Part shown: piece after piece, positions 7,961-35,196 of the stretch
Layout of the letters: every line of letters starts with the position of its first letter
Position numbering within the stretch: position 1 is the first letter of the stretch
NCBI RefSeq assembly: GCF_056746865.1
Contig: NZ_CM163382.1
Direction: 5' to 3' (one strand)
DNA length: 64,000 nucleotides
The notes under the pieces: generated by a model
What the model saw: the letters and a program-made list of their open reading frames with translations, nothing else
Database searches by the model: none
What the model was told of the DNA's origin: nothing
Made by a program: the position numbers and the translations under genes

Positions 7961-8323
7961 GGGGCTGATTCTGGATTCGACGGGATTTGCGAAACCCAAG
8001 GTGCATGCCGAGGGGCGGTTGGCCTCGTAAAAAGCCGCAAAAAATAGTCGCAAACGACGAAAACTACGCTTTAGCAGCTTAATAACCTGCTTAGAGCCCT
8101 CTCTCCCTAGCCTCCGCTCTTAGGACGGGGATCAAGAGAGGTCAAACCCAAAAGAGATCGCGTGGAAGCCCTGCCTGGGGTTGAAGCGTTAAAACTTAAT
8201 CAGGCTAGTTTGTTAGTGGCGTGTCCGTCCGCAGCTGGCAAGCGAATGTAAAGACTGACTAAGCATGTAGTACCGAGGACGTAGGAATTTCGGACGCGGG
8301 TTCAACTCCCGCCAGCTCCACCA
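7961..8323 (+). ncRNA. ssrA: tmRNA (SsrA), 363 nt, ending in CCA
   Basis: Starts ggggctgattctggattcgacggg; contains the tag-reading-frame region gcaaacgacgaaaactacgctttagcagcttaa (ANDENYALAA-stop); ends ...ggttcaactcccgccagctccacca. Confidence 0.95.
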
Positions 8324-8353
8324 AACATTCATTCATGATGCATCATGAACCTT

Positions 8354-8391
8354 AAAAAAGCCTGTAACTTCAACGAGTTGCAGGCTTTTTT
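8354..8391 (+). terminator. ssrA intrinsic terminator
   Basis: aaaaaagcctgtaacttcaacgagttgcaggctttttt hairpin plus T-run directly after ssrA. Confidence 0.6.
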
Positions 8392-8489
8392 GTTGCATGT
8401 GTGGTCATGATCTCTGTATGAATCTTGACCTTTTGGCACCATGTTTAGCACCACGGTATCGTGGGGCTAAAAAAGCGTGGTGCTAAAAC

Positions 8490-9737
8490 ATGCCTAAGCA
8501 ACTGAAACCCTTAACAAATGTGGAGATCGCTGGCGCGAAGCCCCGTAGCACGGATTATGAGCTACGGGACGGTGAAGGCCTGTACTTGCTGGTTAAGACT
8601 TCAGGGAGGAAGGCCTGGCATTTCGAGTATTATCATCCCGTCACCAAAAAGCGCACCAAAACCAGCCTTGGCCCTTACCCGGTCGTTACACTGGCCATGG
8701 CTCGCGAAACTCGCACGAAATACAGACGACTGCTCTGGCAGGGCATCGATCCCCGTCAACACTTAGCAGGAATAGCCGAAGAAAAACGCCTCCAGAATGA
8801 ATGCACGCTGGAAAAAGTTGCGGAACAGTGGCTCAAAGAGAAGAAACGGACCAGCGACCTTAGCGAAGATCACGCCAAAGATGTCTGGCGCTCGCTGGAG
8901 ATGCACGTCTTCCCTTCTCTGGGCAGTACGCCCGTCACCGAGATCCGCCCGAAGATGCTCAAGGAACACCTCACCCCGCTGGAAGAACAGGGCATCCTCG
9001 AAACGCTGCGCCGGGTTATCTCACGGCTCAATGAAATCTTCCGCTTCGCCATCTCCGAAGAGCTTATCGAGTTTAACCCAGCAGACAACCTGGTCGCCCG
9101 CTTCAAGAAACCGAAAAAGCAGAACATGCCCGCCCTTCCCCCCAGCGAACTGGGCAGACTAATGTTGGCACTACAAAACGCCTCTATCCGCAAGGAAACA
9201 CGCTGCCTTATCGAATGGGAGCTACTGACCTGGGTTCGCCCCGGCGAAGCCGTTAGCGCCCGCTGGTGCGACATCGATATGAAAAAAGCGGAATGGCGTA
9301 TCCCTGACACCTTTATGAAGATGAACCGTTCACACACGGTGCCGCTCAGCAAACAGGCGCTGCGTGTTCTTCAGATCATGGAGCCCGTCAGCCGCCATCG
9401 TCCGTGGGTCTTCCCCAGCATCCGCAAACCGCTGGAGCACATGCACCAGCAGACCGCGAACGCCGCGCTTATCCGCATGGGGTTCGGCGGTGAGCTGGTC
9501 GCCCACGGCATGCGCAGCATCGCCAGAACGGCGGGCGCAGGTCATTTTCCCCGTGAAGTTCTGGAATCTGCACTGGCACACCAGAAAGAAGACGAGATCG
9601 AAGCGGCCTACAATCGCAGCGACTATCTGGAACAAAGGCGACCGCTCATGCAGTGGTGGGGAAACTACGTTGATGCCGCCAGACGGCAGGCATTGCTCGG
9701 TGAAGAAGAACCGCTGCGGATCGTGGAAGGAGAATAA
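8490..9737 (+). CDS. P4-type tyrosine integrase (IntA/SlpA-like)
   Basis: 415 aa; N-terminus MPKQLKPLTNVEIAGAKPRSTDYELRDGEGLYLLVKTSGRKAWHFEYYHP is the P4-integrase arm-binding type; C-terminal catalytic region with HxxR and Tyr; located directly next to ssrA. Confidence 0.9.
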   Translation: MPKQLKPLTNVEIAGAKPRSTDYELRDGEGLYLLVKTSGRKAWHFEYYHPVTKKRTKTSLGPYPVVTLAMARETRTKYRRLLWQGIDPRQHLAGIAEEKRLQNECTLEKVAEQWLKEKKRTSDLSEDHAKDVWRSLEMHVFPSLGSTPVTEIRPKMLKEHLTPLEEQGILETLRRVISRLNEIFRFAISEELIEFNPADNLVARFKKPKKQNMPALPPSELGRLMLALQNASIRKETRCLIEWELLTWVRPGEAVSARWCDIDMKKAEWRIPDTFMKMNRSHTVPLSKQALRVLQIMEPVSRHRPWVFPSIRKPLEHMHQQTANAALIRMGFGGELVAHGMRSIARTAGAGHFPREVLESALAHQKEDEIEAAYNRSDYLEQRRPLMQWWGNYVDAARRQALLGEEEPLRIVEGE

Positions 9738-9783
9738 TGTGACCAGTCCCATTCGTCAGAATCTGTTTGAACGGGAATGCGAT

Positions 9784-10383
9784 ATGCCGCTGCTGGAAGC
9801 GCGGCATCTCGCCCTTCTGCTTCTCGGCCTTGATGCTTCCCAACCTGCAAACGCCCTGCCGGAAGAACATCAGGAAAATTACCGTATCCTGCACGACGCC
9901 ATCAGTCGCACCATCAAAGCAACGGGCATGGTCAGCGCCCCGGCGAACAAACGCATGTTCTATGCCGATGAAATGTTCGCGCTGGCCTGGCGGCTTATTG
10001 ATGACGAACTCACGCCGCCAGAAATTAAGGCCCGGAGCCTGAAGGCAGTGATGAAACTGTCACGCAACAGCCGTGGCCGCAAGTGGCTGAAGACGCTCGG
10101 CGACGATGCGCTGCCGGATCTCACTGCTTCCACACAACCTTCCCTGCGTGGGATGCATAAGCGCGACAAAGCACGGGAGAATACTGCCAGGCTCTGCTGG
10201 TTACTGGTTCAGCTTCTGGTTGATGAGACTGACGGACGGTATGGCACGTCTGATAAACCGGCTTCGGATCGGATACTTCGGAAGCTGAAGGAGCTGGCGC
10301 AGGAGCGGGAATTACCGTCAGACGGGCTTGGGCGAGGGACGTTTTATGAGGTTTTGAAGATGGGAAGGGAGAAGGAAGTTTAG
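9784..10383 (+). CDS. hypothetical island protein coupled to integrase (start ambiguous: GTG 9739 directly after the int stop, or ATG 9784)
   Basis: ORF 9364..10383 overlaps int in another frame; plausible starts lie just past the int stop; no recognisable motifs. Confidence 0.45.
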   Translation: MPLLEARHLALLLLGLDASQPANALPEEHQENYRILHDAISRTIKATGMVSAPANKRMFYADEMFALAWRLIDDELTPPEIKARSLKAVMKLSRNSRGRKWLKTLGDDALPDLTASTQPSLRGMHKRDKARENTARLCWLLVQLLVDETDGRYGTSDKPASDRILRKLKELAQERELPSDGLGRGTFYEVLKMGREKEV

Positions 10384-10732
10384 GTAATAACACTGCAGAT
10401 CGCACGTGAACACAGTGCCACTTTCCCTATGGAATGTGAAATTAATCGGTAATACCCCTCGAAAGAATGTGAACAGACACTCTCTTGCTTAACTGTTGAA
10501 ACTCTTCGAATTAAAGACAAGGTTCGCCATTTAATTATCTGACAGTTCGCCCCAGCACAACGTTAAAGTGATTTTTGATCAATCACCTACTCTGCTCTGG
10601 CAGAGCCAGAGCCGTTTTACTGACTAAAGCACAAGCTTCCAGCGAATGCACCTTTCCACACACCATAAGTCTTGTGTGATACCAGCACTGACGGTGTATG
10701 TTACATATCCTTAAAAAGTTCTCCAGACCGAC

Positions 10733-11905
10733 TTAGAGAACCTTAGACTGTTCTGGGAACCAGTTATTAATTATATGTCTTCGACAGACTTTAGATATTT
10801 CAAATACCTGTCGTGACACTAATGCACCATCAGGATGGCGCTGGTCAGGTATGTCATTTTCTATGTCATAAAAATTATGCGTTATTTCTGGGGGAAAGAA
10901 AACGTTTTTGTCTAAAGGCACGCTTGCATAGGGATTATAATACACATGCAAACCATCAAAATGAGTTTCCTTGTAGTCCCTTGTTCGGCACATTACAATA
11001 TCCGCGCCAACAACCTCATTGTTGTAGAATTGTCGCTTCGTAGTAACATAATGGTCAGGACCAAGTTTTCTCGTATGAGAACCTTCGTTCTTCATACCTT
11101 CATTGGCAATAAAAACATTCACATCAAGAGCTCGGAATCTCGTATATCGGACATATCGATCGACCCGACTCTGAACGATAGCCTTACCAAAAGTACCTGT
11201 CGTTGAAAACACGATAGCACTGATTTCTTTGTATGAGTCATTTGTAAAAATACCTAAAGGTATTTCAGTGTCTTCATTTTTTTTAATCGATAAAACCCTT
11301 CTTTGCCTACCATTTACTAAATCTCTCATCGTAGGTTCTTCAATGCCAAACAATACCCGGTTAATGATTGTATTATTCTGGGTTAAAGATAGATCTGAAT
11401 CAAATGGGGCCAATGCTAACACAAAAGGCTTACCGATTACATGTTCCATTGTTGAGTATGGGAACTTCTTACCATTAATTCCGGTAAAGAGATCGCGCTT
11501 ATCTTTAATTTTCCCAAGAAGTTTTAGCGTAGATTGATGCTTAAACTTAGCTTCACTGAAAATTTCACTGACTGGCGGTTTATGGGGCTTGTCAGAGACC
11601 ATAGCCTCTACGTTAAATTTATAACCTAATGGCGTGCTAACACAAAAATCAGGACTGTCTTTTGTATAGTCAACCGAATACCCCAAACGAATAAACATCT
11701 CATTTAGATATAATTCCCACATAGAAGAATTAAAGGTAGTCTGAAATTCGTTAATAAATTTAGTTTGTTCACCACTGCGTTCCAGTAATCCGCGTCCCCA
11801 TGATTGGATCACCGCCCTAACAGGAGCAAGTTTAGGATCTGTGTAGATTGTTTTAAAATTGTGATTTAGTTTATTTCTAGCTATTTTTGTTGAGAAGAGA
11901 TCCAT
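10733..11905 (-). CDS. hypothetical protein, unassigned family (paralogue A); candidate defence or abortive-infection protein
   Basis: 390-aa AT-rich ORF. Shares conserved blocks with the 356-aa product of 33796..34866: EFQTTFNSSMWELYL vs EFQTSFEPCLWELYL, DSPDFCV vs DAPDFIV, FVLALAPFD vs FVIAIASFD, ISAIVFSTTGTFGKA vs VSAVIYSSLATWGKV, YNPYASVPL vs HNPFAKYPL. Confidence 0.7.
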   Translation of the reverse strand: MDLFSTKIARNKLNHNFKTIYTDPKLAPVRAVIQSWGRGLLERSGEQTKFINEFQTTFNSSMWELYLNEMFIRLGYSVDYTKDSPDFCVSTPLGYKFNVEAMVSDKPHKPPVSEIFSEAKFKHQSTLKLLGKIKDKRDLFTGINGKKFPYSTMEHVIGKPFVLALAPFDSDLSLTQNNTIINRVLFGIEEPTMRDLVNGRQRRVLSIKKNEDTEIPLGIFTNDSYKEISAIVFSTTGTFGKAIVQSRVDRYVRYTRFRALDVNVFIANEGMKNEGSHTRKLGPDHYVTTKRQFYNNEVVGADIVMCRTRDYKETHFDGLHVYYNPYASVPLDKNVFFPPEITHNFYDIENDIPDQRHPDGALVSRQVFEISKVCRRHIINNWFPEQSKVL

Positions 11906-12356
11906 TATTTACCTCTATAAACACTTTGTAAAACTAAACATGTGTATTTTACTGCGCTGATTGTCGAACATATGCTTCAAATTGTAATGCGGTATTCTAC
12001 ATCAGAAAAACCTCTTTTATATTTTCCTCATTAAATTTATTTACACCGAAAAATAGCCGCATGAATCATGTCTGAACAGATGAACTTCTCTAATATAGCC
12101 TAAATACCTACGACTGCGCTATAAAGAGGGAACCTCAAGCACTAATAGCACAAAGAAAATATGCGAACACAAATTTGACGCGAAACTATGACTTAGATAG
12201 GATGAATCTAGGTGGTGATGGTCACCTGGCGCCTGTCTCGCAAAGCAATAGCCCATCGTTCAGAAGTATACCAAATACTTGGCCGCCATCCATTATGACG
12301 CTGCCCGGTTAGCAGGCTATCGGTATCCAAAGCGTTACTTTATTGGAGGTACAGCC

Positions 12357-12896
12357 ATGTCTGACTATTCATACCTAAGCATTCTTAAAACGTGCGCTAA
12401 AAAGCTGGCTCGCATTCAGAAAATTAAGCTTTCCAAAGCACTCGAAATCGTTGCCCGTGACGCGAAATTCACCAGCTACCATGAGCTGTCCGAAGTCGCA
12501 AAACGTGCCCCGCTAGAACAACGGCTGGTTTTCGCTGCAATAGGCGAAGATACTCAAGAGGATGTGATTTATCGCGATGAGATTTTTTATGCCATAGACC
12601 GCGAGGTGGAAGATATGCTCTCCGGCGACATAGCGGAAACAAACGCCTATGGTTTTAGCATAGAGAATCTGGAGGCAACAAGCATAAATTACGACCCAAA
12701 GCGAGGCATTCTGGTCGTCCAAGTCATATTTGATTATCAGGGTGAACAAGATTCTGAACGCCCTTTCTCTGGTTCGTCCTTTGAAATTGTTGCGAAAATG
12801 GAGCTACTTCTTCGCGACAATGTATGGAGCCTCGTAGAAAATAGTCTGGAATTGACCTCTGTTAATTCAAATGTCGATAATGACTGGTACGATTAA
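12357..12896 (+). CDS. hypothetical protein (start uncertain; ORF opens at 12279)
   Basis: Long ORF in the AT-rich int-alpA interval; no motif recognised. Confidence 0.35.
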   Translation: MSDYSYLSILKTCAKKLARIQKIKLSKALEIVARDAKFTSYHELSEVAKRAPLEQRLVFAAIGEDTQEDVIYRDEIFYAIDREVEDMLSGDIAETNAYGFSIENLEATSINYDPKRGILVVQVIFDYQGEQDSERPFSGSSFEIVAKMELLLRDNVWSLVENSLELTSVNSNVDNDWYD

Positions 12897-13497
12897 GACA
12901 TATAACAGTAGGAGGCATTCCAAATTTTTGGCGGAGTGCCTTTTTAGTAACTATATCCAGATGAAATCATCGAGTTATCACATGAGCATCCATCTTACGT
13001 GTACTCAAAACACTTATGGGCTTCTAAATTCAGGAAGTCCCTACTCCGCTTGCTGGCGCTTCTTTGAGCCTCGTGGCGTCCATATACACCAATTAGGCCA
13101 GACCATGCTCAAACAACTTGTCGAGAAATGCTATGTGCAAAAACCACTGGACATGTTCTCGATGACAGCAGGCAAACTAACTGGGCTTGATCAATCTGGG
13201 CCTAAACTGGCTTCCATCATATGCAGAGGGATAGAGCAGGCCAAAGATGTACAACTCGGAGAGTTACTTTTTGCCTGCGGTATCTATGGTGTGGAAGAAG
13301 AAGAAGCCTGGTTACTAGCTAAAAGATTCAGTAATCTTGAGGCCTTGTATGGTGCCAGCATAGATTCTCTGATGAGTTATAACCTTCTTAATGAGGCAGT
13401 AGCTGTCAATACGTATAACTTCTTCCGTCATCCGCTCAATGTGTCGGCTCTTAACGAGTTACAAACAGAAGGTGGATTGAAGGTGCGCCATGGATAG
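12871..13497 (+). CDS. stand-alone protein homologous to the C-terminal helix-hairpin-helix region of NAD-dependent DNA ligase LigA (start uncertain)
   Basis: Translation ...VHIHQLGQTMLKQLVEKCYVQKPLDMFSMTAGKLTGLDQSGPKLASIICRGIEQAKDVQLGELLFACGIYGV...KRFSNLEALYGASIDSL...NFFRHPLNVSALNELQTEG parallels the LigA HhH region as I remember it (QLVEK.YV..P.DLF.LTAGKLTGL...GPK.A......FGTLEAL..AS.EEL...NFF...N..VI.EL); no adenylation KxDG motif upstream. Confidence 0.55.
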   Translation: MSIMTGTIKTYNSRRHSKFLAECLFSNYIQMKSSSYHMSIHLTCTQNTYGLLNSGSPYSACWRFFEPRGVHIHQLGQTMLKQLVEKCYVQKPLDMFSMTAGKLTGLDQSGPKLASIICRGIEQAKDVQLGELLFACGIYGVEEEEAWLLAKRFSNLEALYGASIDSLMSYNLLNEAVAVNTYNFFRHPLNVSALNELQTEGGLKVRHG

Positions 13498-13680
13498 AAT
13501 TAACACCAAGGCTGTGCCCGGCCTTTTATCTATGCAACGTAGCCGATGACAGTTAACGGTGAGACAGCAACACCTGTTGTAACATGTTTGTACTCGTGCA
13601 TTGCCATCCGTAGGCCTAAACATATCTGACTCCCACAGGATGGGGATAAAATACAACATTTGCATTTTCAATTTGTTATC

Positions 13681-13733
13681 GAAAAATCATTAGTCCTGAT
13701 GGGAAATAATATCTTCCCGGACTAATGATTTTC
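13681..13733. promoter_or_regulatory. long palindrome upstream of alpA (candidate operator, or terminator of the upstream gene)
   Basis: gaaaaatcattagtcc (13681..13696) and ggactaatgattttc (13719..13733) form a 14-bp perfect inverted repeat with inner gggaa/ttccc symmetry, about 100 bp upstream of the alpA start. Confidence 0.4.
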
Positions 13734-13831
13734 TATCCGGACTCCACTTTTTTATCCGGGCCTATACCTCCCCTCATCGTTCCGCGCTATAACCGCTCCG
13801 ACACTCTGTTCCCGTCCCGTGAGGTGCAATC

Positions 13832-14047
13832 ATGAAAACCAGTGCAGACAGTAACGATGCTTTTCCCGAAAGCGGCAACGTGCGTATGCGGCAGGTAGTC
13901 CAGTTTCTGGCGATGAGTGAATCGTCGGTTTACCGCCTGATTAAAAACACCGACTTTCCCCGCCCCGTCCACCTCTCTTCCCGACTGGTGGTCTTCGATG
14001 CTGCTGAAATCCGTCAGTGGCAACAGCGCCGCGCCGCCATCCGTTAA
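13832..14047 (+). CDS. alpA: AlpA-family phage transcriptional regulator (HTH_17)
   Basis: 71 aa; VRMRQVVQFLAMSESSVYRLIKNTDFPRPVHLSSRLVVFDAAEIRQWQQRR is typical AlpA; sits directly upstream of the primase gene. Confidence 0.8.
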   Translation: MKTSADSNDAFPESGNVRMRQVVQFLAMSESSVYRLIKNTDFPRPVHLSSRLVVFDAAEIRQWQQRRAAIR

Positions 14048-14082
14048 TCCACGCTCAGGGATGAGCCGACTGATACCCCGTC

Positions 14083-16152
14083 ATGAAACGCGCCCCTTTT
14101 CTCTGTAAGCAGTCTCCGGACCGCACGCTCGAAGTGGTGATCCTTGCCGGAAGCCTGGCATGGGAGACCTCACACGTGTGGCGAAAAGATCCCGACCGGG
14201 AAGATGATGTTCCCCCGATGGTACTCGGCCCGGATGAACTGGCCGATCTGAGCAATCTGACCATTATCAGGCCCGACACGCTCTACGTCCGGGTACTTCG
14301 CACCGGCGATATCAGTGAAGAAGAGCTGCTGAAAATTGCCGTAAAACTGGCGCACGCGGGCGTGCAGATGGCCCGGCTGATGACCCCTGACGGTGAGTTA
14401 CTGGAGAACTGGACCGGACAGCTTGAACGCCTGCGACAGGAAAGACCTTCTGACATCCTGCCGGATCACTTCCGCCTCGATGAAGAAGCACTGTGGTTTG
14501 ATAAGCTCACCGAACGGCGCGACGGTGAAAGCGATGTCCAGCCCCAGCGCATCTGTTCCCCTCTGCGCGTCACTGCCATCACCTGCGACAGCCATGACGG
14601 CAGCTATGGCCGCCTGCTGGAATGGCACACCACCACCGGGCAATTGCGGCGCTGGGCCATGCCGATGGCGATGCTCAGCGGCAACGGCGAGGAGCTGAGG
14701 CGCATTCTGCTGGAGAACGGCCTGACCTATATCTCCACCCGCCCTGCCCTGCGCAGTCTGCTGTGCGAATATATCTCGCGGTCACTCCCCGGACGCCGGG
14801 TCACCTGCGCGGAGAAAACCGGCTGGCACAACGGCGTGTACGTGCTGCCGGATGAGGTTATCGGTCCCGATGGCGACAACGTCATTCTCCAGGGCAGCCA
14901 CTACCTGACTGGCGGCTTTGCACAATCCGGTACGCTGGCAGAGTGGCAGGAGCAGGTCGCCGCGCTCTGTGCAGGCAATTCACGGCTGGTCTTTGCCGTC
15001 TGCTGTGCGCTGGCCGCCCCGCTGCTGCGCCTGACAGGAACGGGCGGCGGAGGCTTTCATCTGCGCGGTGAGTCCACTGACGGTAAGACCACGGTGATGA
15101 AAGTGGCCGCTTCCGTCTGTGGCGGGACGGATTACTGGCACTCCTGGCGGGCCACCGGGAATGCGCTGGAAGGAATTGCCAGCCGCCACAACGATGCCCT
15201 GCTGCCACTTGATGAACTGCGCGAAGTGGACCCGCGTGAGGCCGGGATGATTGCCTATATGCTGGCGAACGGACAGGGCAAGGGGCGCGCCCGCACCGAT
15301 GGCGAAGTGCGTAACCGCAGGCACTGGACGCTGCTGCTGTTCTCCACCGGGGAGCTGTCGCTGGCGGAACACACCGAATGCGCCGGGGAGCGCCTCTACG
15401 CCGGGATGGACGTGCGCATGGTACAAATCCCCAGCGACACCGGGCAGCATGGTTCGTTTGAGCAGTTGCACGGGTTTGCCAGCGGCCAGCAGTTCGCCGA
15501 TACTCTCTGCGACCGGGTGGCCCGCTTCCACGGCACCGCCTTTCGTGCCTGGCTGGCCTTCCTCACCAGCGACCTGGACGCCAGCACCACGCTGGCGAGA
15601 GAGTTACTTCGCCGCTACCAGACCGCCCTGATGCCGGACAACGCCGGAAACCAGGTGCAGCGCATCGTGGCCCGTTTTGCCCTGCTGGCGGTGGCCGGGG
15701 AGATAGCGACACTGAACGGTATCACGGGCTGGCAGGAAGGCTCGGCGTATGGGGCGGTGCAGATCTGCCTTCACGCCTGGCTGAACGAGCGCGGCCATAT
15801 TGCCAACCAGGAAGATGAAGGCGTGCTGGCGCAGATCAAGCGGTTCATTACCGCGCACCAGTACAGCCGCTTTGCCTCGTGGGATGGCCCGGACCGCCCG
15901 CTGAATATGGCAGGCTTTCGCCGGGTGGAAAAAGATCCGCTGACGGGCGAGGAACACACGCTGTTCTTCATCCTGCCTGAGGGCTGGCGGGAAATATGCC
16001 GGGGATTCAGTCCTGCCAGAGCGGCCAGATTATGCCAGGAAGCGGAATGCCTGCTGCCCGGCAGCGACGGGAAATACCAGTCGCAGGTTCGCCTGCCGGA
16101 GATCGGCAAAGCCAGAGTCTACCGCCTCACCTCCCGCATCCTCAGTATCTGA
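14083..16152 (+). CDS. phage/satellite replication protein (primase-like N-terminal region plus P-loop NTPase)
   Basis: 689 aa; Walker A-like GESTDGKTT in the middle; alpA-primase-iteron arrangement typical of P4-like and PICI elements. The many antisense ORFs across it reflect high GC. Confidence 0.7.
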   Translation: MKRAPFLCKQSPDRTLEVVILAGSLAWETSHVWRKDPDREDDVPPMVLGPDELADLSNLTIIRPDTLYVRVLRTGDISEEELLKIAVKLAHAGVQMARLMTPDGELLENWTGQLERLRQERPSDILPDHFRLDEEALWFDKLTERRDGESDVQPQRICSPLRVTAITCDSHDGSYGRLLEWHTTTGQLRRWAMPMAMLSGNGEELRRILLENGLTYISTRPALRSLLCEYISRSLPGRRVTCAEKTGWHNGVYVLPDEVIGPDGDNVILQGSHYLTGGFAQSGTLAEWQEQVAALCAGNSRLVFAVCCALAAPLLRLTGTGGGGFHLRGESTDGKTTVMKVAASVCGGTDYWHSWRATGNALEGIASRHNDALLPLDELREVDPREAGMIAYMLANGQGKGRARTDGEVRNRRHWTLLLFSTGELSLAEHTECAGERLYAGMDVRMVQIPSDTGQHGSFEQLHGFASGQQFADTLCDRVARFHGTAFRAWLAFLTSDLDASTTLARELLRRYQTALMPDNAGNQVQRIVARFALLAVAGEIATLNGITGWQEGSAYGAVQICLHAWLNERGHIANQEDEGVLAQIKRFITAHQYSRFASWDGPDRPLNMAGFRRVEKDPLTGEEHTLFFILPEGWREICRGFSPARAARLCQEAECLLPGSDGKYQSQVRLPEIGKARVYRLTSRILSI

Positions 16153-16169
16153 GTGCCATCTCGCGTGTC

Positions 16170-16385
16170 TTAAAAAAAGGTGGTACAGGGTGGGACAAGT
16201 GGTACACGCAGAGCTGGCGCGGGTTTCAGCGTCCCACTTTAGATAATTTGGTTTAAAAAAAGTGGTACAGAGTGGGACAGCCGTTGCTGAATCTGTCCCA
16301 CTTTTCTGACTGGTATTTTTCAGGTGGTACAGCGCAAAGCCACGGCTGGCGCGGTTGTACCACTTGTCCCACCTGTACCACCTTA
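16170..16385. repeat. iteron cluster, putative origin of replication of the island
   Basis: Copies of GTGGTACAG(R)GTGGGACA: aaaaaaaggtggtacagggtgggacaagtggtaca (16174..), aaaaaaagtggtacagagtgggacag (16254..), ggtggtacagcg (16322..), and an inverted copy gttgtaccacttgtcccacctgtaccacc (16355..16383); A-runs precede the direct copies. Confidence 0.7.
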
Positions 16386-16824
16386 AAAACAGAAGAAATG
16401 AAAATGGCGAAAAGGGACTGCAAAAGCAAAGGCTGAAAGGAAGAGAGAATAAGGGGAACGGACTTACTCTTAAATGGATAACCTATATTTTTATATTCGT
16501 ACCATTTACATGATGGAGTGCAAAGTTACCATTCAACATGATTTGGATTAGATAGCAAAATTCTCTATAGAATGTTTTCTAGATTTCAGAGGGATTTAAC
16601 GATAGCTTATCTCACAAATCACAAATCGGTCAAAAAATATACAGAAAACCAAGTTTTGCCCAGAAATCCTTTTAAAATTTTTGAGTTAAAAATCATTGTG
16701 TTGTATTAATTTCAGGACGCCACATGTCAAATATCGACACCCAATATAGTGTATAAAAACACAGGAGGACTCATTGTGATTTATATAATAAAATAACCTT
16801 ATACATCTTTCTGGAAACCAAGTA

Positions 16825-17811
16825 ATGGTTAAAATTCACATTTTAGATGCCGGACATGGTGATTGCTTGTTAGTAGACTGCGATGGTGTCAAATTGTTAA
16901 TTGACGCTGGCCCAAGTACATTTAGGTATAGAAAAAAAATTTCAGCCAAGTTAGCTGAACTTCTGAATGGCGAGTCTGTTGATATCGCTTTTGTAACTCA
17001 CAATGATGATGACCATATCGGTGGTTTCAAATACCTAATTGAAAATAAAATAAACATCAAGAGATTTGTATTCAATAGTTTATCTAACATTAAACATGTA
17101 ATAAAGAATTCAAGCAATAAAATATCGACCAAACAAGATATAAATCTTGATAGAATAGTGAAAGATGGAAGTTTTGTCTTTTCGACACTAACTTCAGATG
17201 ACTCTCCTATTTTAATCAGAAATATAAAAATAACACCTATTACTCCTTCAAAAAATATCCTTTTAAAATATTTAGAACAACAAGAGCGTAAAAACACAGA
17301 AATTAAAATATCATCTTCATCTGAAAAATATAGTATTAAAGAAGCACTGCAGTTGCTAAGCAATGGAAATGATATGTTTGTAAAGGATCCATCGGCAACT
17401 AATAAAACCAGTTTATCATTTATGATTGAGTATGGGAATTTTTGTGGATTATTCCTTGGTGATGCACACGAAGAAGACATCTACTCATATATGGCTAATC
17501 ATTGTGCCAATAGAAAAATATCATTTAACGTTGTTAAGTTAGCACATCATGGTAGTGAAAAAAACACGAGTTCACGGTTATTGAAGTTAATTGGTACAAC
17601 AGAATATATCATATGTGCGAATAAAACCAAGCATAATCATCCAAATAATTTAACTCTTGCAAGAATTTTAATACATGAACAAGAACCTAAAATTCATATG
17701 AGTAGCAGCAATCAGGAGATAATAAATTTACTCAATCAAATAAATTTATTAGGCTTCGGCATTACTGCAACCCATTCTGAAAATGGAGTTAATACTTTAA
17801 TCTATGAGTAG
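16825..17811 (+). CDS. metallo-beta-lactamase-fold hydrolase (ComEC-like MBL domain); first gene of candidate defence operon
   Basis: 328 aa; MBL motifs HILDAGHGD, VTHNDDDHIGG, GDAH, KLAHHGSEKN; strongly AT-rich; stop overlaps next start. Confidence 0.75.
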   Translation: MVKIHILDAGHGDCLLVDCDGVKLLIDAGPSTFRYRKKISAKLAELLNGESVDIAFVTHNDDDHIGGFKYLIENKINIKRFVFNSLSNIKHVIKNSSNKISTKQDINLDRIVKDGSFVFSTLTSDDSPILIRNIKITPITPSKNILLKYLEQQERKNTEIKISSSSEKYSIKEALQLLSNGNDMFVKDPSATNKTSLSFMIEYGNFCGLFLGDAHEEDIYSYMANHCANRKISFNVVKLAHHGSEKNTSSRLLKLIGTTEYIICANKTKHNHPNNLTLARILIHEQEPKIHMSSSNQEIINLLNQINLLGFGITATHSENGVNTLIYE

Positions 17812-19027
17812 AAAAAATGCTGTAAAAATAAAAGTCAATGATTCGGAATCAAGTGGCTATTTTTTCAAAGCAAGCTCCAAGGATGATTCTTTTGTAATTT
17901 CATCCAAGCACGGCCTTTGTTCTAGACAGTCAGATTGTGAAGAATTTCTTGATAATGTTCAGAATTGTTGCCGTTTATGCACTCAAGATTTAAATATTGA
18001 CAATATATCTTTTGAAATTGAAGGAAATAAGAAGCTAAAGCCAATAAGTTATTTCAGTCTTGAAAACAAAGATATTGTCATCACCAAAGTGGATGGGGTA
18101 TCTAATTATCCTTTAAGGATAGGAAAGATAGAAAAAGAAAAGTATTATACTTATGGTTACAAGAGTAAATGTGATAAGCCTGGCAGAATTTTATTAAATG
18201 AGCCAGATTTATTAGATGGGATTTGTTATTTCAATATATGTTCCGATGCAACACCTGAGTTGATTGAGAAAAGTGAAGAATATTATGGAATTTCAGGTTC
18301 ATTAGTTTTTGATTCTCCAGAAAAAGATGTTTTAACCGCACATGCAGTAATAACAACTAATGAAACCAATAATGACTTAGGTTCAGAAATATTACATGAT
18401 ATTGATTTCAAAGAAATTAATAACTTTTTCGGCTGTGAAGTATTCTTGGGTAAAAAACTCCAATTTCAACTAGATGATACTTTTAGTAAAAATTTTTCAA
18501 AGATTGGAGAAGTGCTTGTTAGCGACAAACTCCAAATTGAAATATTTATTTCATCTTATAAAGGTATACCATATTTTAATTTGACACCAATTGCTGATGC
18601 ATTAATTCAAAGTAAGTTTTATTATGTTTTTGGAAATGTTAGTAGAAGTGATCATATAAATATAATCGCTGCATCAAACATTATACTCAACAAATCTCAT
18701 TTAGAACCAGCTAATAAATTATTAACTAGCAAATTAACTGAATCGATATTATCAGCACCTCATATTTATTCCACTAGCATTGATGATAATAATTATCATC
18801 ATATTCATTTTAAACAAATGACTTCTGGTGATATTGAGCTCATAATATCATGTTATGGTGGAGGAGATGATCTTCCTAAAGATATAAATGGCACTTTAAC
18901 TGAGTTGTTACACAATATAAATACTTATAACTTAAATAAAAATTCAATAATTGAGAGGTCTTTTCTTAATCAAAAATTTACAGATGCACAATGCGAAATT
19001 TTATATGAGATTTTTTTGAGCGATTAA
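17804..19027 (+). CDS. protein with N-terminal trypsin-like (S1/DegP-type) serine protease domain and unknown C-terminal domain
   Basis: 407 aa; SSGYFFKASSKDDSFVISSKHGLC (GSGF...TNxHV-like His region), ENKDIVITKVDG (Asp region), YGISGSLVFD (GxSGxP-like Ser region) in trypsin-fold order; start ATGAGTAG overlaps the upstream stop. Confidence 0.6.
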   Translation: MSRKNAVKIKVNDSESSGYFFKASSKDDSFVISSKHGLCSRQSDCEEFLDNVQNCCRLCTQDLNIDNISFEIEGNKKLKPISYFSLENKDIVITKVDGVSNYPLRIGKIEKEKYYTYGYKSKCDKPGRILLNEPDLLDGICYFNICSDATPELIEKSEEYYGISGSLVFDSPEKDVLTAHAVITTNETNNDLGSEILHDIDFKEINNFFGCEVFLGKKLQFQLDDTFSKNFSKIGEVLVSDKLQIEIFISSYKGIPYFNLTPIADALIQSKFYYVFGNVSRSDHINIIAASNIILNKSHLEPANKLLTSKLTESILSAPHIYSTSIDDNNYHHIHFKQMTSGDIELIISCYGGGDDLPKDINGTLTELLHNINTYNLNKNSIIERSFLNQKFTDAQCEILYEIFLSD

Positions 19028-19053
19028 CTGATTCAATCGACAGAATTTCATTA

Positions 19054-19269
19054 TTGCATGTAATTCCTTTGGACCATTATTTAATAAAAGATAAATCAGA
19101 AATTAAAAATGAAATTATTACCATTGTTGAGAAAGCGTGTCAAGAATTAGACAGCAACATTTTAGATTATCTTGAGCATGGAATATCTATAAATCTATTA
19201 ATATTTCCAACTAATAATAAAGATGAATTATCAGGGTTAATGCAAAGGTTGATAAATAATTATGAATGA
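19054..19269 (+). CDS. small hypothetical protein (71 aa) coupled to the helicase gene
   Basis: ORF whose stop overlaps the helicase start (aattATGAatgatg); no motifs. Confidence 0.4.
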   Translation: MHVIPLDHYLIKDKSEIKNEIITIVEKACQELDSNILDYLEHGISINLLIFPTNNKDELSGLMQRLINNYE

Positions 19270-28467: not shown

Positions 28468-29306
28468 GCGTCCTCCTGACAGAGCGGGAATAAATCATCC
28501 TCATACTGGAGCATCCCCATGATTTCCCGGACATAGTTATCGACATGCCCCAGAAAGTGAAAACGTTCCGGTGCGGCGCGATAGCGTTGATAAAGCGGCG
28601 TATCGAAGGTGATGCCAAGATGCGGGTTCCCTTTGACGGTGGCGAATTTGATGCGCGGAATATGCGGGTAGTAATGATTCTTGCGCACGCAGAGCTGCCC
28701 GTTCTCTTCCACGATGTAGCAGGCCATACCGTGATAAAACTGCACCGTGTCGTAGTGAACCGCGCAGGGTTTATAGGCCAGATTGCTGAACACCAGCGGC
28801 CCGTCGCCAATATTGATGGAGCAGTGGCCGTAATTCGGCGGCACGATAATGCTTTCCCCCTCCTTCACCACCGCCACGATAAGATCGTCCACCAGCAGAT
28901 CTTTTGGCGCGACTGCAAAATCCGGCGACTTTTGCAGGATATATGCCGCAGTCCCCTTAATCACTTCATATAATTCCGGATGGGTGTTGCGCCGCGTGTC
29001 GTTATAGCCGTGATAATGACCGCTGGTTTTCTTGCGCTCCCTACCAATCGTTCCCGACATGATGATGGTGATGTCGTACTGATACTGGTCGGCAGCAAGC
29101 CGTTCCTGATCCTCCGCAAAACTGAGCCCGCGATAAACATCGTAAGCCGGTTCATCACGCTGCGCTTCGGTGAACTCCGGTAAGACCACCGCCATCTGCC
29201 CGGCGCTTTTGCGGCCAAAGCCGAGATAGTTCAGCGGGGGTTTCAGCACCATCACGCCGTCGTCATCGAGATACAGCGGTAAGCCGCTGTGGTGTAGCTG
29301 TTTCAT
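28464..29306 (-). CDS. cupin-type sugar-phosphate isomerase-like protein (possible cupin glucose-6-phosphate isomerase family)
   Basis: 280 aa with TSGHYHG motif and conserved Glu/His further on, suggesting a metal-binding cupin; assignment tentative. Confidence 0.45.
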   Translation of the reverse strand: MKQLHHSGLPLYLDDDGVMVLKPPLNYLGFGRKSAGQMAVVLPEFTEAQRDEPAYDVYRGLSFAEDQERLAADQYQYDITIIMSGTIGRERKKTSGHYHGYNDTRRNTHPELYEVIKGTAAYILQKSPDFAVAPKDLLVDDLIVAVVKEGESIIVPPNYGHCSINIGDGPLVFSNLAYKPCAVHYDTVQFYHGMACYIVEENGQLCVRKNHYYPHIPRIKFATVKGNPHLGITFDTPLYQRYRAAPERFHFLGHVDNYVREIMGMLQYEDDLFPLCQEDA

Positions 29307-30829
29307 TTTGCCTCCTGTGTATACGCGTTAGCTGCGCGGATCGCCTCTTTCAGCCGATCGGATTTCATGCCAAAGACGCTTTGAATGTTGTTCCCGACCT
29401 CGACGACACCCGCCGCACCAAGCTGTTTCAGCAGCGCTTTGTCCACCAGCGACTTATCCGTCACGTCAATGCGCAGACGCGACATGCAGGCTTCGATGCG
29501 GGTCATATTCCCCAGCCCGCCATAGGCCAGAATGATGCCGCTCACCAGGTCGTTCTGTTCGTTTTCCTGCGCCACAGTGCTTTCTTCGACTTCACACCCC
29601 GGCGTCAGCAAATTCCAGCGGCGGATGGCAAAGGTAAACAGGGCGTAGTACACCGCTCCCATCACCAGCCCGACCGGGAACACCATGTACCAGTGAGGCG
29701 CGCGCGGCAGGACGCCAAAGAACAAATAGTCGATAAGCCCGCCGGAGAAAGAGAGCCCGATGTGCACGCTGAACCACTCCATCAGCAGGAACACCAGCCC
29801 CGCCAGGACGGCGTGAATGCCATATAGCACGGGCGCAACAAACAGGAAGGAGAACTCAATCGGCTCGGTGATGCCGCAGACGATGGAGGTGATCGCGCCA
29901 GAGAGCATAATGCCCTTCACCCGCGCTTTGTTTTCCGGGCTGGCGCAGCGGTAGATCGCCACCGCAATCGCCGGAATGCAGAACATCTTGATCGGCGTCA
30001 GCCCGGCCATAAAGGTTCCGGCGGTAATCGGCACCTGATCTTTCAACTGGGCAAAGAAGATAAGCTGGTCGCCATGCACCACCTGCCCGGCTTTGTTCAC
30101 GTACTCGCCAAACTGCAGCCAGAACGTCGGCCACCAGACATGGTTAAGACCAAACGGAATCAGCAGCCGCTCGACAAAACCGAACAGGAAGGCGGACACG
30201 CCCGGCCCCTGCACCGTCATAGTATTCGACAGGCCATTAATCAGATGCTGAACCGGCGGCCAGACCACCGTCATCACCAGCCCGACAAACAGCGCGGCGA
30301 AGGAGGTCACTATCGGCACAAATCGCTTGCCGGAGAAGAACTCCAGCCATGAAGGAAGCTGGATGCGGTAATAGCGTTTATACAGCCAGGCGGCGATAAT
30401 CCCGATAATGATGCCGCCAAACACGCCGGTCTGGAGCGAAGGGATGCCCAGCACCATCGTGTAGTCACGTACCTGCGCCACCGACTCGGGCGTGATCCCC
30501 AGAAACTGGCCGATGGTGACGTTCATAATCAGAAAACCGGCGATCGCCGACAACCCGGCAATCCCCTGATCGTCACTCAGTCCTACCGCCACGCCGACCG
30601 CAAACAGCAGCGGCAGGTTAGCGAAAATCGCACTGCCCGCTTCAGCCATCAGCTTCAGCACGTGAACCAGCCAGTCAGCGCCGAGAAACGGCAGGCTGGC
30701 GACAATATTGGGATCCTGAAAGCTGACGCCGAAGGCCAGCAAAATACCGGCGGCAGGCAGCATGGCAATGGGGATCATTAACGATCGCCCGATGCTTTGT
30801 AACATTTGCAGAAGGTTGAATCTTTTCAT
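29303..30829 (-). CDS. PTS EIICB component, glucose/N-acetylglucosamine family
   Basis: 508 aa; multi-pass EIIC domain followed by an EIIB domain with phosphorylatable Cys (GNMTRIEACMSRLRI). Confidence 0.85.
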   Translation of the reverse strand: MKRFNLLQMLQSIGRSLMIPIAMLPAAGILLAFGVSFQDPNIVASLPFLGADWLVHVLKLMAEAGSAIFANLPLLFAVGVAVGLSDDQGIAGLSAIAGFLIMNVTIGQFLGITPESVAQVRDYTMVLGIPSLQTGVFGGIIIGIIAAWLYKRYYRIQLPSWLEFFSGKRFVPIVTSFAALFVGLVMTVVWPPVQHLINGLSNTMTVQGPGVSAFLFGFVERLLIPFGLNHVWWPTFWLQFGEYVNKAGQVVHGDQLIFFAQLKDQVPITAGTFMAGLTPIKMFCIPAIAVAIYRCASPENKARVKGIMLSGAITSIVCGITEPIEFSFLFVAPVLYGIHAVLAGLVFLLMEWFSVHIGLSFSGGLIDYLFFGVLPRAPHWYMVFPVGLVMGAVYYALFTFAIRRWNLLTPGCEVEESTVAQENEQNDLVSGIILAYGGLGNMTRIEACMSRLRIDVTDKSLVDKALLKQLGAAGVVEVGNNIQSVFGMKSDRLKEAIRAANAYTQEAK

Positions 30830-31051
30830 CTCGATCTCCTGAGCGCGTCTTTATGACAGGGATTCGCACAACAGCAGGTTCTGCTCCGAACACCTTCAGT
30901 ATCCGAACCGGAGATGATTAAAAAAACAGCAACCGACAACGAAAGTTATTTCCGGTTTTCGCTTAAAACCGGAAAATTTATGAGGACAATCACGCCGGAA
31001 ACCGTGAGAAAGGGATAAAAGAGGAAATCGCGTTCGGTGGGAGGCCATCAT

Positions 31052-32731
31052 ATGAGTATCTTCGAGGCGCATTTTCGCAGGCTGCACGCCCGCTACGGCG
31101 CAGGTCAGACGCACGAATTACAGATGCAGGAGATCGCCGCCATCTTCGGCTGTTCAGTGCGTAATTGCCGGATTGCTTTGAAAAAGATGCATCAGGAAAA
31201 ATGGCTCGACTGGCAGCCCCAGCGCGGGCGTGGCAAGCGCTCACGGCTCCACCTGTTAACCTCGCCGGAAAAGCTGTTCAGCCAGAACGTCAATAAGCTA
31301 CTGGAGAAGCAGGATTACGGCAACGTGCTGCGGTTTATCGGCAACGACAAGTATCTGCTGGATCGCCTGAGCCTGTGGCGCTTTGGGGTACAGGATAAAA
31401 GCAGTGAAACGCGGGTGCGCATCCCCTACTATCGCAATCTGGATCCGCTTAACCCGCTCGTCCCCCTGCGGCGGACCGAACGACATCTCCTGCGACAGTG
31501 CCTCAGCGGGCTGACGCGCTATGACGCCGTTCAGGGCAGGATCATCCCCGATATCGCCCACTACTGGACCCACAACGACGACTTTACCCGCTGGGAGTTC
31601 TGGCTGAAATCCACCGCCCGCTTTGCCGATGGCAGCGAACTGAATGCCAGCGCCGTTCAGCGCTGCCTGCTCGCCGCCAGCCAGAGCCCGCAGTTCGCGC
31701 CGCTTTTCAGCCCAATCAAAACCATCACCGCTGACGCCCCCTGGCATCTGGTGATTGAAACGTACCATCCGGTCAGACGGCTCGACTGCCTGCTCGCCAC
31801 TCAGCCGACGATGCTGTTCGATTACCAGCACGGACACATCCGCTGTACCGGCGCTTTCCACCTGCAGGAACACAGTGACAACTTTATGGTTTTGCGGCGC
31901 AATCAACACTGGCACCAGGCGAGGCCCGGACTGGATGAGATCACCATTTTCACCTGGGCTCCGGAGCATATCAGCATGAGCTTTATTCCCCTGCTGCGGG
32001 GCGAAGAGGCGCAGGATGACCGCCCGCTCAACGAGCGTAGTCTGGAGCAGGGCTGCTGTTTTGTGCTGCTCGACGGTGAAGGTGCCTTTGCGGATGAGGC
32101 CGGAAGACGGTTTATCAATTACCTGCTGCAACCTGTCGAACTCCTCAGCCAGACGCAGCTTCCTGACGAATACGCACGCATCCTCTCCGTTGCTCAGGGC
32201 ATGCTGCCGCAGTGGAATCACCGCCCGGTGGATTTCGGCGGGATCACCGCGCCGTTTAACCTGCGTCAGCCGGTTATCATCAGCACCTTTCAGCAGCCGG
32301 AACTGGTGGAGCTTGCCGGAGCGATTCGCATCCTGCTTGAACGCTGGCATATTCGCGCCGAGATACGGATCGACGCATTTGACAGCTTCAACAGCCAGCC
32401 GCGCCCTCCTGCGGATATCTGGCTCAGCAACTTTATGCTCGATACCCTTTCGGTTCCGGCTTTTCTGGAATGGCTGGCTTCCACCACGCTGTTTACGCGA
32501 CTGCCTGAAACCCAGCGACAAAACCTGAACGCCCTGCTGCCGACCATTCTGAACAGCGATAATGAACAGGCGTTCGCAACCATTGCCGCCTTTTTCCATG
32601 AGATGACCCACCAGCGATATGTCATTCCTTTGCTACATCACTGGATGGAATTTGCGACCGAGAAGTCATTTACCTGGCGCGATTTAAATACGCTGGGATG
32701 GCCGGATTTTAGCCAACTTTGGCTCGAATAA
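31052..32731 (+). CDS. SgrR-family transcriptional regulator (N-terminal HTH plus solute-binding-protein family 5 domain)
   Basis: N-terminus MSIFEAHFRRLHARYGAGQTHELQMQEIAAIFGCSVRNCRIALKKMHQEKWLDWQPQRGRGKRSRLHLL parallels SgrR (...WLTWEAEVGRGKRSRLTFL); divergent from the PTS operon; GGGAGG Shine-Dalgarno before ATG 31052. Confidence 0.8.
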   Translation: MSIFEAHFRRLHARYGAGQTHELQMQEIAAIFGCSVRNCRIALKKMHQEKWLDWQPQRGRGKRSRLHLLTSPEKLFSQNVNKLLEKQDYGNVLRFIGNDKYLLDRLSLWRFGVQDKSSETRVRIPYYRNLDPLNPLVPLRRTERHLLRQCLSGLTRYDAVQGRIIPDIAHYWTHNDDFTRWEFWLKSTARFADGSELNASAVQRCLLAASQSPQFAPLFSPIKTITADAPWHLVIETYHPVRRLDCLLATQPTMLFDYQHGHIRCTGAFHLQEHSDNFMVLRRNQHWHQARPGLDEITIFTWAPEHISMSFIPLLRGEEAQDDRPLNERSLEQGCCFVLLDGEGAFADEAGRRFINYLLQPVELLSQTQLPDEYARILSVAQGMLPQWNHRPVDFGGITAPFNLRQPVIISTFQQPELVELAGAIRILLERWHIRAEIRIDAFDSFNSQPRPPADIWLSNFMLDTLSVPAFLEWLASTTLFTRLPETQRQNLNALLPTILNSDNEQAFATIAAFFHEMTHQRYVIPLLHHWMEFATEKSFTWRDLNTLGWPDFSQLWLE

Positions 32732-33082
32732 TGCTACGCCCGCAAAAGCTCGCTAAAGGGCCTTTAAAGGCCTTTAAGGGTAAGGGAGGGAAGTGCGGGA
32801 TTTGGGGCGGGGAACGGTAGACAAATTCAGTCCTCACGACGGAGACTGTTCAAATGTCTCTGTACTGACGCCCCAATATGGCTTTACCACCGTCTCCGAT
32901 TGTTGAACACGTCAATGTCATCGAAGATATCTGCACGATCCAGATCCTGGGTTTTGTAGGCCCGTTTTCTGATGCACTGCTTTTTCAGCGAACTGAAGCA
33001 AGGCCATAGAAGTAAAACAGTACCGCTGGCAACTGGGCATTTTCTCGCTTTAGCGGAGACCAACAGTATGCTTAGATTCAGT

Positions 33083-33622
33083 TTATGCCGTCAGCCGATA
33101 GTGCGACTGCACCAGACCCGAAGGGAAGCTGCGGCTGGATAATAGCGTCAAATCGATATCATGGGGTAATACTCCGAATAGCGGTTTTCCCGAACCGAGC
33201 AGAACAGGAACAGTTGTGATAACGATATCGGCAACCAGACCTTCGCGCAGGAACGACTGTATTAACTGCCCGCCATCGATATAAACCCGGTGCACGTTCT
33301 TCTCCATAAGGTCAGCAAGAGCCTCCCTTGGCGTGCGGCATGAAAACTGTACTTTACCCTTCAGCGCCTTGGGCACGGGGGTATCGGTTAGCTGCCGGGA
33401 AAGCACCAGCACGGGCCGATCATAAGGCCATTCGTCAAAAGTCAGCACCTTCTCATAGGTGCCTCGTCCCATAATGATCCAATCTTTGTCCGCGATGAAT
33501 GCGGCATAGCCATGATCTTCTGTCGGGTCATCGCGCTTTAACAGCCAGTCGATATCGCCATCCTGTCGGGCGATATAACCATCAAGACTGACCGCGATGA
33601 AAACATGTGTGGTGACCATCAA
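33083..33622 (-). CDS. dihydrofolate reductase-like / RibD C-terminal domain family protein
   Basis: 179 aa; MMVTTHVFIAVSLDGYIARQDGDIDWL...IIMGRGTYE...VLSRQ pattern of the RibD_C/DHFR-like family. Confidence 0.7.
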   Translation of the reverse strand: MMVTTHVFIAVSLDGYIARQDGDIDWLLKRDDPTEDHGYAAFIADKDWIIMGRGTYEKVLTFDEWPYDRPVLVLSRQLTDTPVPKALKGKVQFSCRTPREALADLMEKNVHRVYIDGGQLIQSFLREGLVADIVITTVPVLLGSGKPLFGVLPHDIDLTLLSSRSFPSGLVQSHYRLTA

Positions 33623-33678
33623 GTGCTCCGTTTTCAGGTTGCATATATCTCGTTGAGTTTAGCAATGTTCGCTCCAGG

Positions 33679-33738
33679 CACGAAGCGAGCAAGTTACCTA
33701 AGTTGAAGGTCCGCAGGGAGCGAGGAGCAGAAGTTCGA
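33679..33738 (+). repeat. about 60-bp imperfect direct repeat, copy 1 (upstream of paralogue B)
   Basis: cacgaagcgagcaagttacctaagttgaaggtccgcagggagcgaggagcagaagttcga; about 70 percent identical to copy 2, with perfect blocks cacgaagcga, gaaggtccg, gagcgagga, gaagttc. Confidence 0.55.
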
Positions 33739-33843
33739 AGCACATCATGAAGTAAGTTTTAAAATGGGAGATAACTTGCTTTTACATATTTTCCAATGCA
33801 ATATCATACCCTTTTAAAAATAAATCAGATATATGAGGTGAAA

Positions 33844-34866: not shown

Positions 34867-35065
34867 TAAATATGGTCATATTTATTTACTTTACATAGAT
34901 AAAGTCTAAAGATGGCACTTCCTTTAAACTCAACTACCTATGATTTAGAGTGGTTGTCCGGCCTGCTTCCGTAACCGTTAGTTCGACTGACGAGATTCCT
35001 GTTTCCCTCTAAAAGACTTGGTTGATTAAAACAGGTCACCGAATAGCCATTTAGTCCACTTTGAC

Positions 35066-35125: not shown

Positions 35126-35196
35126 AGTTGATCTCACACCCAAATAGTCGCATTACTAACATTGCTGCGTGTTAATCAACAGGCAGCAGGTCACTC

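Follow-up and report, generated by a model that had tools for sequence, protein, structure and literature searches.

PD-T7-5 is one of 21 anti-phage systems obtained by functional selection, in its case against phage T7 (Vassallo et al., 2022; PMC9519451). As described there, the prototype (RRM82777.1, clone T7-74, from Escherichia coli UMB0934) is a single open reading frame (ORF) at 27110-28283, about 1173 nt, whose clone included about 140 nt of flank; it was validated, bears the label ‘Nuclease’ and protects a K-12 host outside its native element. The discoverers already proposed a PD-(D/E)xK core for PD-T7-5, and their HHpred table gives low-probability matches over residues 59-107 to Hjc, FokI_C, BsuBI_PstI, Vsr, PDDEXK_5 and RmuC (PMC9519451). 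Later surveys have placed PD-T7-1 and PD-T7-5 among the single-gene PD-(D/E)xK systems, and the occurrence of PD-T7-5 on SSU5-like phage-plasmids from E. coli and Shigella is reported in a preprint. Here we analyse two genes, A (10733..11905, minus strand) and B (33844..34866, plus strand), in a 64,000-nt stretch of contig NZ_CM163382.1 (assembly GCF_056746865.1) from E. coli, hereafter the window, together with the double-hairpin element that brackets gene B. We consider it likely that both genes encode single-polypeptide PD-T7-5 defence proteins, each with a nuclease core and a C-terminal domain, and that they entered the region separately.

Two genes of the PD-T7-5 family

The 390-residue product of gene A matched the PADLOC profile for PD-T7-5 (PDLC04110) with an E-value of 2.4e-137, its residues 1-371 aligning with profile positions 1-342 of 346. 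The product of gene B matched the same profile at 8.2e-102, with residues 4-335 on positions 1-340. The PADLOC model for PD-T7-1 (PDLC04073) matched both more weakly (A 1.5e-40, B 1.2e-50). PHROG 8571, a group of unknown function, matched A at 1e-101 and also matched B, and neither protein had a family match in Pfam or NCBIfam. Judged from these full-length matches, A and B are members of an experimentally discovered single-gene anti-phage family and are not new, A as PD-T7-5 in the strict sense and B as a divergent family member. A preliminary description of the window, made from its letters and predicted ORFs, had called the family unassigned, which is true of Pfam and NCBIfam but not of PADLOC and the PHROGs, both of which contain it. 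Its guess at a single-gene defence protein, on the other hand, agrees with the full-length profile matches and with the validation of PD-T7-5 as a one-gene system (PMC9519451). A standard PADLOC run would name both genes PD-T7-5. In RefSeq both are labelled ‘hypothetical protein’, or they carry elsewhere, as in UniProt and NCBI, the name ‘glycosaminoglycan attachment site’, which from the nature of the label looks like a short-motif match and is, in our judgement, spurious. A practical gain of the analysis is thus the correct annotation of A and B as PD-T7-5-family defence genes.

The two proteins align over their whole length with 26% identity over about 350 residues (BLASTP, E = 4e-31). The conserved blocks that had been noticed in the pair were all found in both, and their core residues are invariant in an alignment of 59 diverse homologues. 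Both genes are AT-rich, as previously stated, with a GC content of 37.6% for A and 36.9% for B, against 49-50% in the flanking core genes. The ATG of gene A is preceded, at a distance of 7 nt, by GAGG. For gene B two starts share the end at 34866, an upstream ATG at 33796, which gives 356 residues, and the ATG at 33844, which gives 340. The latter follows a GAGGTG and is the start of the 1023-nt RefSeq coding sequence, and it is likely to be the true one; the 356 residues first given for B belong to an ORF that exists, but to the upstream ATG and not to the start at 33844 that had been quoted with them. Scans for promoters and terminators around A and B gave counts no higher than in shuffled sequence.

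The family comprises 744 clusters at 50% identity (E <= 1e-3), from many phyla. Its members stand alone in the loci compared: the neighbours of A-type genes differ between the island at ssrA that carries A and a phage-plasmid, with no conserved partner, and B sits alone between two boundary elements. One candidate partner of A was rejected, about 300 nt upstream of A that are shared with the phage-plasmids but lie there about 5 kb from the A-like gene. Relatives are found at known prophage hotspots and on phage-plasmids; the contigs of metagenomic representatives were too short to be informative on gene neighbourhood.

Of 5426 complete E. coli genomes, 134 have gene A at a DNA identity of 99% or more, and the copy is chromosomal in every case. 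A sensitive search added 13 plasmids of about 111 kb with a gene of 390 codons that is 72% (DNA) and 76% (protein) identical to A. Their genes for a tail fibre, DnaB and a primase mark these plasmids as phage-plasmids. On one of them, E. coli plasmid p2 (NZ_OZ501614.1, locus L008), the A-like allele lies at 6001-7173, between a DUF2971 gene and the replication genes for DnaB and primase. Both E. coli alleles measure 1173 nt, which is the ORF length of the prototype. In UMB0934, PD-T7-5 and PD-T4-1 are on different contigs by the contig numbers of Table S2 of the source (PMC9519451), and in the window they are 14 kb apart. The validated allele is therefore either A or the phage-plasmid one, and A is accordingly either the validated PD-T7-5 allele itself or its 76%-identical sister.

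The prototype, A and B are alike in being single genes with full-length profile matches, in the weak PD-(D/E)xK signal around residues 59-107, in their E. coli host and in their mobile-element context. With the prototype A shares the ORF length, at a protein identity of either 100% or 76%, and B differs from it in belonging to another clade. To place A and B relative to each other we ranked the 150 best family representatives. About 120 of them lie nearer to A than B does, and again about 120 lie nearer to B than A does. Each gene comes about 125th in the other's list; the nearest representative of B has 54% identity. A belongs to a small subclade of 390-residue proteins with an extra beta insertion of about 30 residues in the C-terminal domain, and B to a large clade of about 340 residues without it. 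With more than 100 representatives closer to each gene than A is to B, the ranking argues against a local duplication and places A and B in different subfamilies, in line with the earlier remark that they are too diverged to be a recent duplication. A is already known, and B is a member of a second PD-T7-5 subfamily, with predicted activity. A paralogue pair of 26% identity in one genome offers a handle for asking whether the subfamilies differ in phage spectrum.

PD-T7-1 (about 450 residues) has the same core, its profile positions from about 107 to 447 of 452 aligning with A and B, and HHpred gives it the same nuclease hints as PD-T7-5, shifted by about 110 residues. It has an extra N-terminal domain of about 105 residues which A and B lack, and the phage-borne proteins of this type measure 449-472 residues. 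PD-T7-1, too, sits at prophage hotspots, and its phage spectrum leans to T-even phages in the source screen (PMC9519451).

Conserved core and possible mode of action

In the 59-sequence alignment, with residues numbered as in A, Q55, W63, E64, P85, D86, E100, K136, Y150, F220, E313, G318 and N324 are invariant, and K241, R365 and others nearly so; B keeps all invariant and near-invariant residues. The AlphaFold2 models are very confident for both proteins, with a predicted local distance difference test score (pLDDT) of 91.4 and a predicted template modelling score (pTM) of 0.92 for A, and 93.9 and 0.93 for B. In both models the elements follow each other in the order helix (with E64), short strand, strand starting at P85-D86, strand (with E100), long helix (with K136) and strand. 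The invariant D86 and E100 and this order of elements give moderate support to the degenerate PD-(D/E)xK core suggested in the preliminary description, but the canonical lysine of the motif is missing; we therefore regard a degenerate nuclease core in both modelled proteins as a proposal of moderate strength. Compared with the PD-(D/E)xK superfamily (Hjc, VRR-NUC/FAN1, XisH, CdiA-CT toxins, type II restriction endonucleases), A and B have V, T or M in place of this lysine, a conserved lysine on the next helix and a large family-specific C-terminal domain, and the family is missed by every Pfam model of the clan. Pfam gave no match for any of the 59 aligned homologues, and a profile search of PDB sequences with the family gave none either. 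Membership in Shedu (DUF4263) was considered and rejected, as neither A, B nor the 59 homologues matched it in Pfam; one relative in AFDB bears the DUF4263 label. The C-terminal half is beta-rich and particular to the family, with the motifs SA(I/V)xFS..T.GK and (Y/H)NP(Y/F)A.

A possible mode of action can be put together from these features. Residues from about 50 to 170 would form an N-terminal nuclease core with the fold of PD-(D/E)xK restriction endonucleases and E64, D86 and E100 as its acidic residues, and the beta-rich C-terminal domain would sense or select the target. On infection the protein would cleave nucleic acid, most likely phage DNA, and block phage replication with no need of a partner gene. 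Family membership, fold, conserved residues and genomic context are taken here from this analysis, and the anti-phage activity of the prototype from the literature; the nuclease activity, its substrate, the role of the C-terminal domain and the activity of the A and B alleles are what we infer. Several points weigh against such a reading. Position 102, that of the lysine in (D/E)xK, is V, T or M and never K. We found no biochemical, structural or mechanistic study of PD-T7-5 in the literature. The validated allele may be either A itself or the 76%-identical phage-plasmid allele. B, finally, is only 26% identical to A, and its anti-phage activity is predicted. The conserved residues together with the confident models amount to a ready design for mutagenesis.

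The same fold could also serve defence by abortive infection, in which detection of a phage product by the C-terminal domain would turn the nuclease fold, as a toxin, against host DNA or tRNA, so that the infected cell is killed or arrested. Twelve of the 21 systems of the source screen behaved in this way, but direct immunity was seen with seven of its 11 systems that have a putative domain for DNA binding or cleavage (PMC9519451). Neither A nor B has a methylase or other self-protection gene beside it, as would suit a toxin of this kind; the prototype, however, was cloned and kept with its native promoter, and no toxicity was reported. On balance we find abortive infection possible and rather less probable than direct cleavage of phage DNA. 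More radically, the fold might be catalytically dead, and the protein a nucleic-acid-binding sensor or blocker (for example one that excludes phage replication or packaging), or one that serves the mobile element in its maintenance or in the exclusion of competitors. The absence of the canonical lysine from every family member would agree with this, as would the weak structural similarity to true nucleases and the fact that the genes are always on mobile elements (a satellite-like island, prophages, phage-plasmids). Yet three acidic residues, the PD dipeptide and one lysine are invariant over hundreds of diverged clusters, which is a typical active-site pattern, and the prototype protects its K-12 host away from the native element. 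A relocated lysine is a familiar finding in the PD-(D/E)xK superfamily, and the alignment offers two candidates here, the invariant K136 on the next helix and the near-invariant K241. A dead fold seems improbable to us.

Finally, gene B, and possibly also A, could be a decaying, non-functional passenger kept by clonal inheritance of the region. The 24-kb block that holds both genes is essentially identical in 130 genomes, which leaves little time for selection, the hairpins of the elements flanking B have decayed, the array around B is cut by remnants of insertion sequences (IS) and a nearby HamB-like helicase gene is split by a frameshift. Both ORFs, however, are full length relative to the family, every invariant residue is kept in A and in B, a Shine-Dalgarno sequence precedes each gene, and the structure predictions are very confident for both proteins. 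Decay of the genes themselves is, to our mind, an improbable account.

A double-hairpin element around defence-gene cassettes

The direct repeats reported around B are present, as an imperfect core of 58 nt with 76% identity at 33679-33736 and 35066-35123. They belong to a longer element of about 87 nt with the consensus ...TTAGCAAC GTCCGCT-YCTGGCACRR-AGCGGAC, about 19 nt, GTCCGCT-GTGAGCGARG-AGCGGAC-(A/G)TT. The element consists of two hairpins with an identical stem of 7 bp (GTCCGCT/AGCGGAC) and different conserved loops of 10 nt (YCTGGCACRR and GTGAGCGARG). A covariance model of it, R1, finds only two copies in the window, both on the plus strand. The copy 5' of B is at 33653..33739 (hairpin 1 at 33667-33690, hairpin 2 at 33709-33732; 81.7 bits, E = 3.5e-18) and the copy 3' of B at 35040..35126 (hairpin 1 at 35054-35077, hairpin 2 at 35096-35119; 67.3 bits, E = 1.1e-14). 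The repeats around B gave nothing in Rfam at the gathering threshold or at E <= 1. Well-preserved copies fold far better than shuffled sequence, with a z-score of about -4. Around B both copies have decayed, with z-scores of -0.3 and -1.0, the former for the downstream copy, in which the stems are partly decayed.

Conservation of the fold was assessed by a covariation test on 35 distinct copies with 500 shuffles, in which hairpin 2 was fixed by the search pattern and hence uninformative. Hairpin 1 shows compensatory changes, with 7 double-change cells against 1.3 in the shuffles, and none of the 500 shuffles reached its covariation score. A nested single-hairpin fold like that of an integron attC site, by contrast, showed no covariation, its score being reached in 424 of the 500 shuffles. 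An attC site was accordingly rejected, as the covariation favours two local hairpins; no IntI was noticed in the loci examined, where no systematic search for it was made.

When one good copy was used as a BLAST query, 1030 of the 5426 complete E. coli genomes, about a fifth, gave matches, none of them annotated. In other loci the copies form arrays in one orientation, 0.3-5.8 kb apart, with at least two copies in 37 of 64 loci. Examples are L010 (437-504, 2596-2682 and 4989-5075), L005 (4335-4402 and 6299-6387), L030 (8463-8542 and 11348-11433) and L070; L017, L014 and L035 hold four copies each. The cassettes so bounded enclose the PD-T7-1-type gene of the lambdoid phage mEp460, a SIR2 gene, AbiH with a small gene, PD-T7-3 in the Z region of P2-EC30, and a Septu-like PtuA/PtuB pair directly after a Ren-like gene. 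PD-T7-1 genes directly adjoin copies of the element in two other prophage contigs, and PD-T4-7 directly follows the last copy in a prophage of strain NADC1036. A 341-residue gene beside the element in that strain, tried as a relative of B, was rejected; it is PD-T4-7. The element thus bounds defence-gene cassettes in P2-like and lambdoid prophages and in the island of the window.

Homology between unrelated loci with the element ends at the feet of the hairpins. An array opens with a lone hairpin 2 and closes with a lone hairpin 1, and both hairpins are present at its inner junctions. From the array ends and the breakpoints it follows that the unit is hairpin 2 - genes - hairpin 1. Both copies around B are complete, with both hairpins, and B is therefore the middle cassette of a remnant array of three, between a dihydrofolate-reductase (DHFR)-family gene and a gene for a protein with a CBS pair. 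This array is decayed and has been truncated by IS remnants.

The existence of such repeats is not new, because GenBank AJ512676 annotates a ‘left inverted repeat’ and a second repeat around the insert of P2-EC30. In the Z/fun region of P2-like coliphages, inserts of foreign DNA between inverted repeats are said to have been described by Nilsson and colleagues in 2004. Model R1 matches the repeats around ORF1 of P2-EC30 in AJ512676, and ORF1 is PD-T7-3. We take this entry to be the record of Nilsson, Karlsson & Haggard-Ljungquist (2004, Mol Biol Evol 21:1). That study dealt with P2-like phages; the element is found here in the ssrA island and, at other loci, in lambdoid prophages, and in arrays of up to four copies. 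A literature search for sequence strings of the element and for descriptive terms found neither, nor any treatment later than that of AJ512676.

Three roles may be envisaged for the element: a site for site-specific recombination, an end for single-strand transposition, or a transcript-level element that gives phage recombinases short homology. We tentatively suggest, as one possibility, that the repeats are a dedicated recombination site for mobile defence-gene cassettes, the unit of hairpin 2, genes and hairpin 1 being inserted or swapped by a site-specific or a single-strand (IS200- or integron-like) mechanism. Cassettes may then be exchanged among P2-like prophages, lambdoid prophages and chromosomal islands of enterobacteria, and such a site would carry many of the ‘PD’ systems, namely PD-T7-1, PD-T7-3, the PD-T7-5 family and PD-T4-7, besides Septu-like, SIR2 and AbiH genes. 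More ordinarily, the hairpins could be conserved for a role in RNA or transcription and merely provide short homology for ordinary phage recombination. The element may matter more than the gene finding and could help in finding new defence genes and in studying the exchange of cargo at prophage hotspots.

Some observations concern the other cassettes of the array. The DHFR-family gene (33083-33622, minus strand, RibD_C-like) lies between an IS3 remnant and the boundary element and is an odd cargo for an array of defence cassettes. On the other side of B, a minus-strand gene at 35197-36294 encodes a protein of 365 residues with a CBS pair (Pfam, 1.9e-09) and a C-terminal R-N-D-V-M-H that resembles the Rx4H motif of HEPN proteins. 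It had no PADLOC or PHROG match and is, because its cassette adjoins that of B, a candidate uncharacterised defence gene. Its place is taken in strain 118UI by an IS5 element. Downstream of the CBS gene the region is interrupted by an IS3-family element, whose frameshift site is marked by an ALIL pseudoknot at 37222-37338 on the plus strand (Rfam RF01497, 121.5 bits).

The ssrA-ileY region and its cargo

Genes A and B are both located in a variable region that extends from ssrA to ileY (7961..48769), a position which we take to be the site of prophage CP4-57 in K-12. Its left boundary and attachment site is the transfer-messenger RNA gene ssrA (7961..8323, plus strand; ARAGORN, Rfam RF00023, 292.8 bits), and its right boundary is a tRNA gene with anticodon CAT (48694..48769, minus strand; ARAGORN, RefSeq), a tRNA-Ile of the ileY type. 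The genes on the left are the integrase, a gene of 214 codons, A, two small genes, alpA and a DUF927 primase-like gene. They are followed by genes for an LmuA-like metallo-beta-lactamase (MBL)-fold protein, a 407-residue protein, a split HamB-like helicase and a helix-turn-helix protein, a sorbitol-type phosphotransferase-system operon and PD-T4-1. Next come an hxlAB/ptsG-type operon, an SgrR-family regulator, the IS3 remnant and the DHFR-family, B and CBS-pair genes, and the region ends with IS elements, an AIDA-like gene and ypjC.

Gene A occupies the cargo slot between int and alpA in a satellite-like island at ssrA. The slot is bracketed by the island integrase (8490..9737, plus strand, with an integrase-domain annotation in strain 118UI) and the AlpA-family regulator (13832..14047, plus strand, from the RefSeq annotation of an identical locus), and next to it is the primase-like replication gene of the satellite-like backbone (14083..16152, plus strand; PHROG 1139 ‘DNA primase’, 1e-114). 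In the comparison with P4-like satellites, whose backbone genes include psu, delta, sid and alpha, only integrase, AlpA and the DUF927 primase-like gene were recognised and no capsid-redirecting genes were seen. A and B had first been assigned to one island. A does lie between int and alpA, but B is 23 kb away behind two sugar operons, and what the two genes share is the composite ssrA-ileY region.

A sister island in E. coli 200164 (L007, NZ_CM128590.1), compared with 8490-33000 of the window, has a backbone 92.6% identical to it and keeps int, alpA, the primase gene, both sugar operons and SgrR. It has other genes at all four places where the window has defence genes, among them a 979-residue helicase with a small protein in the place of A, and an integrase fragment, YfbU and an FRG-domain PDC-S15 candidate in the place of the B segment. 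The different cargo between int and alpA in this island indicates that the interval is a real cargo slot, as the preliminary description had supposed, and the region acts as a conserved scaffold in which at least four positions can exchange their cargo.

Among the 5426 complete E. coli genomes, 130 carry the 24-kb block from A to B at about 100% identity, one of them a strain labelled ST69, and A and B are therefore inherited as one clonal block. The argument that two acquisitions of one family point to selection is not upheld, since the pairing has been passed on as a unit among genomes of one closely related set, with no evidence of repeated selection. We propose that A and B entered the region separately and are now inherited together in one fixed region of 40 kb.

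In this E. coli lineage the ssrA-ileY region forms a dense defence island, with two PD-T7-5-family genes, PD-T4-1 and a Lamassu- or Hachiman-like cluster. The cluster (16825-21786) encodes the LmuA-like MBL-fold protein (16825..17811; PADLOC, 2.9e-61), the 407-residue protein, which had no Pfam, PADLOC or PHROG match, and the HamB-like helicase, which a frameshift near 20422-20464 splits into two ORFs. We read the cluster as a hybrid system, Hachiman- or Lamassu-like, or else as one in decay. PD-T4-1 (DUF3883; 25968..27170, plus strand; PADLOC PDLC04021, 1.3e-204) is a second validated single-gene defence system. Its ORF has the length of the validated PD-T4-1 of UMB0934, which is also the source strain of PD-T7-5, and the allele is present in 131 of the 5426 genomes, in all of them on the chromosome.

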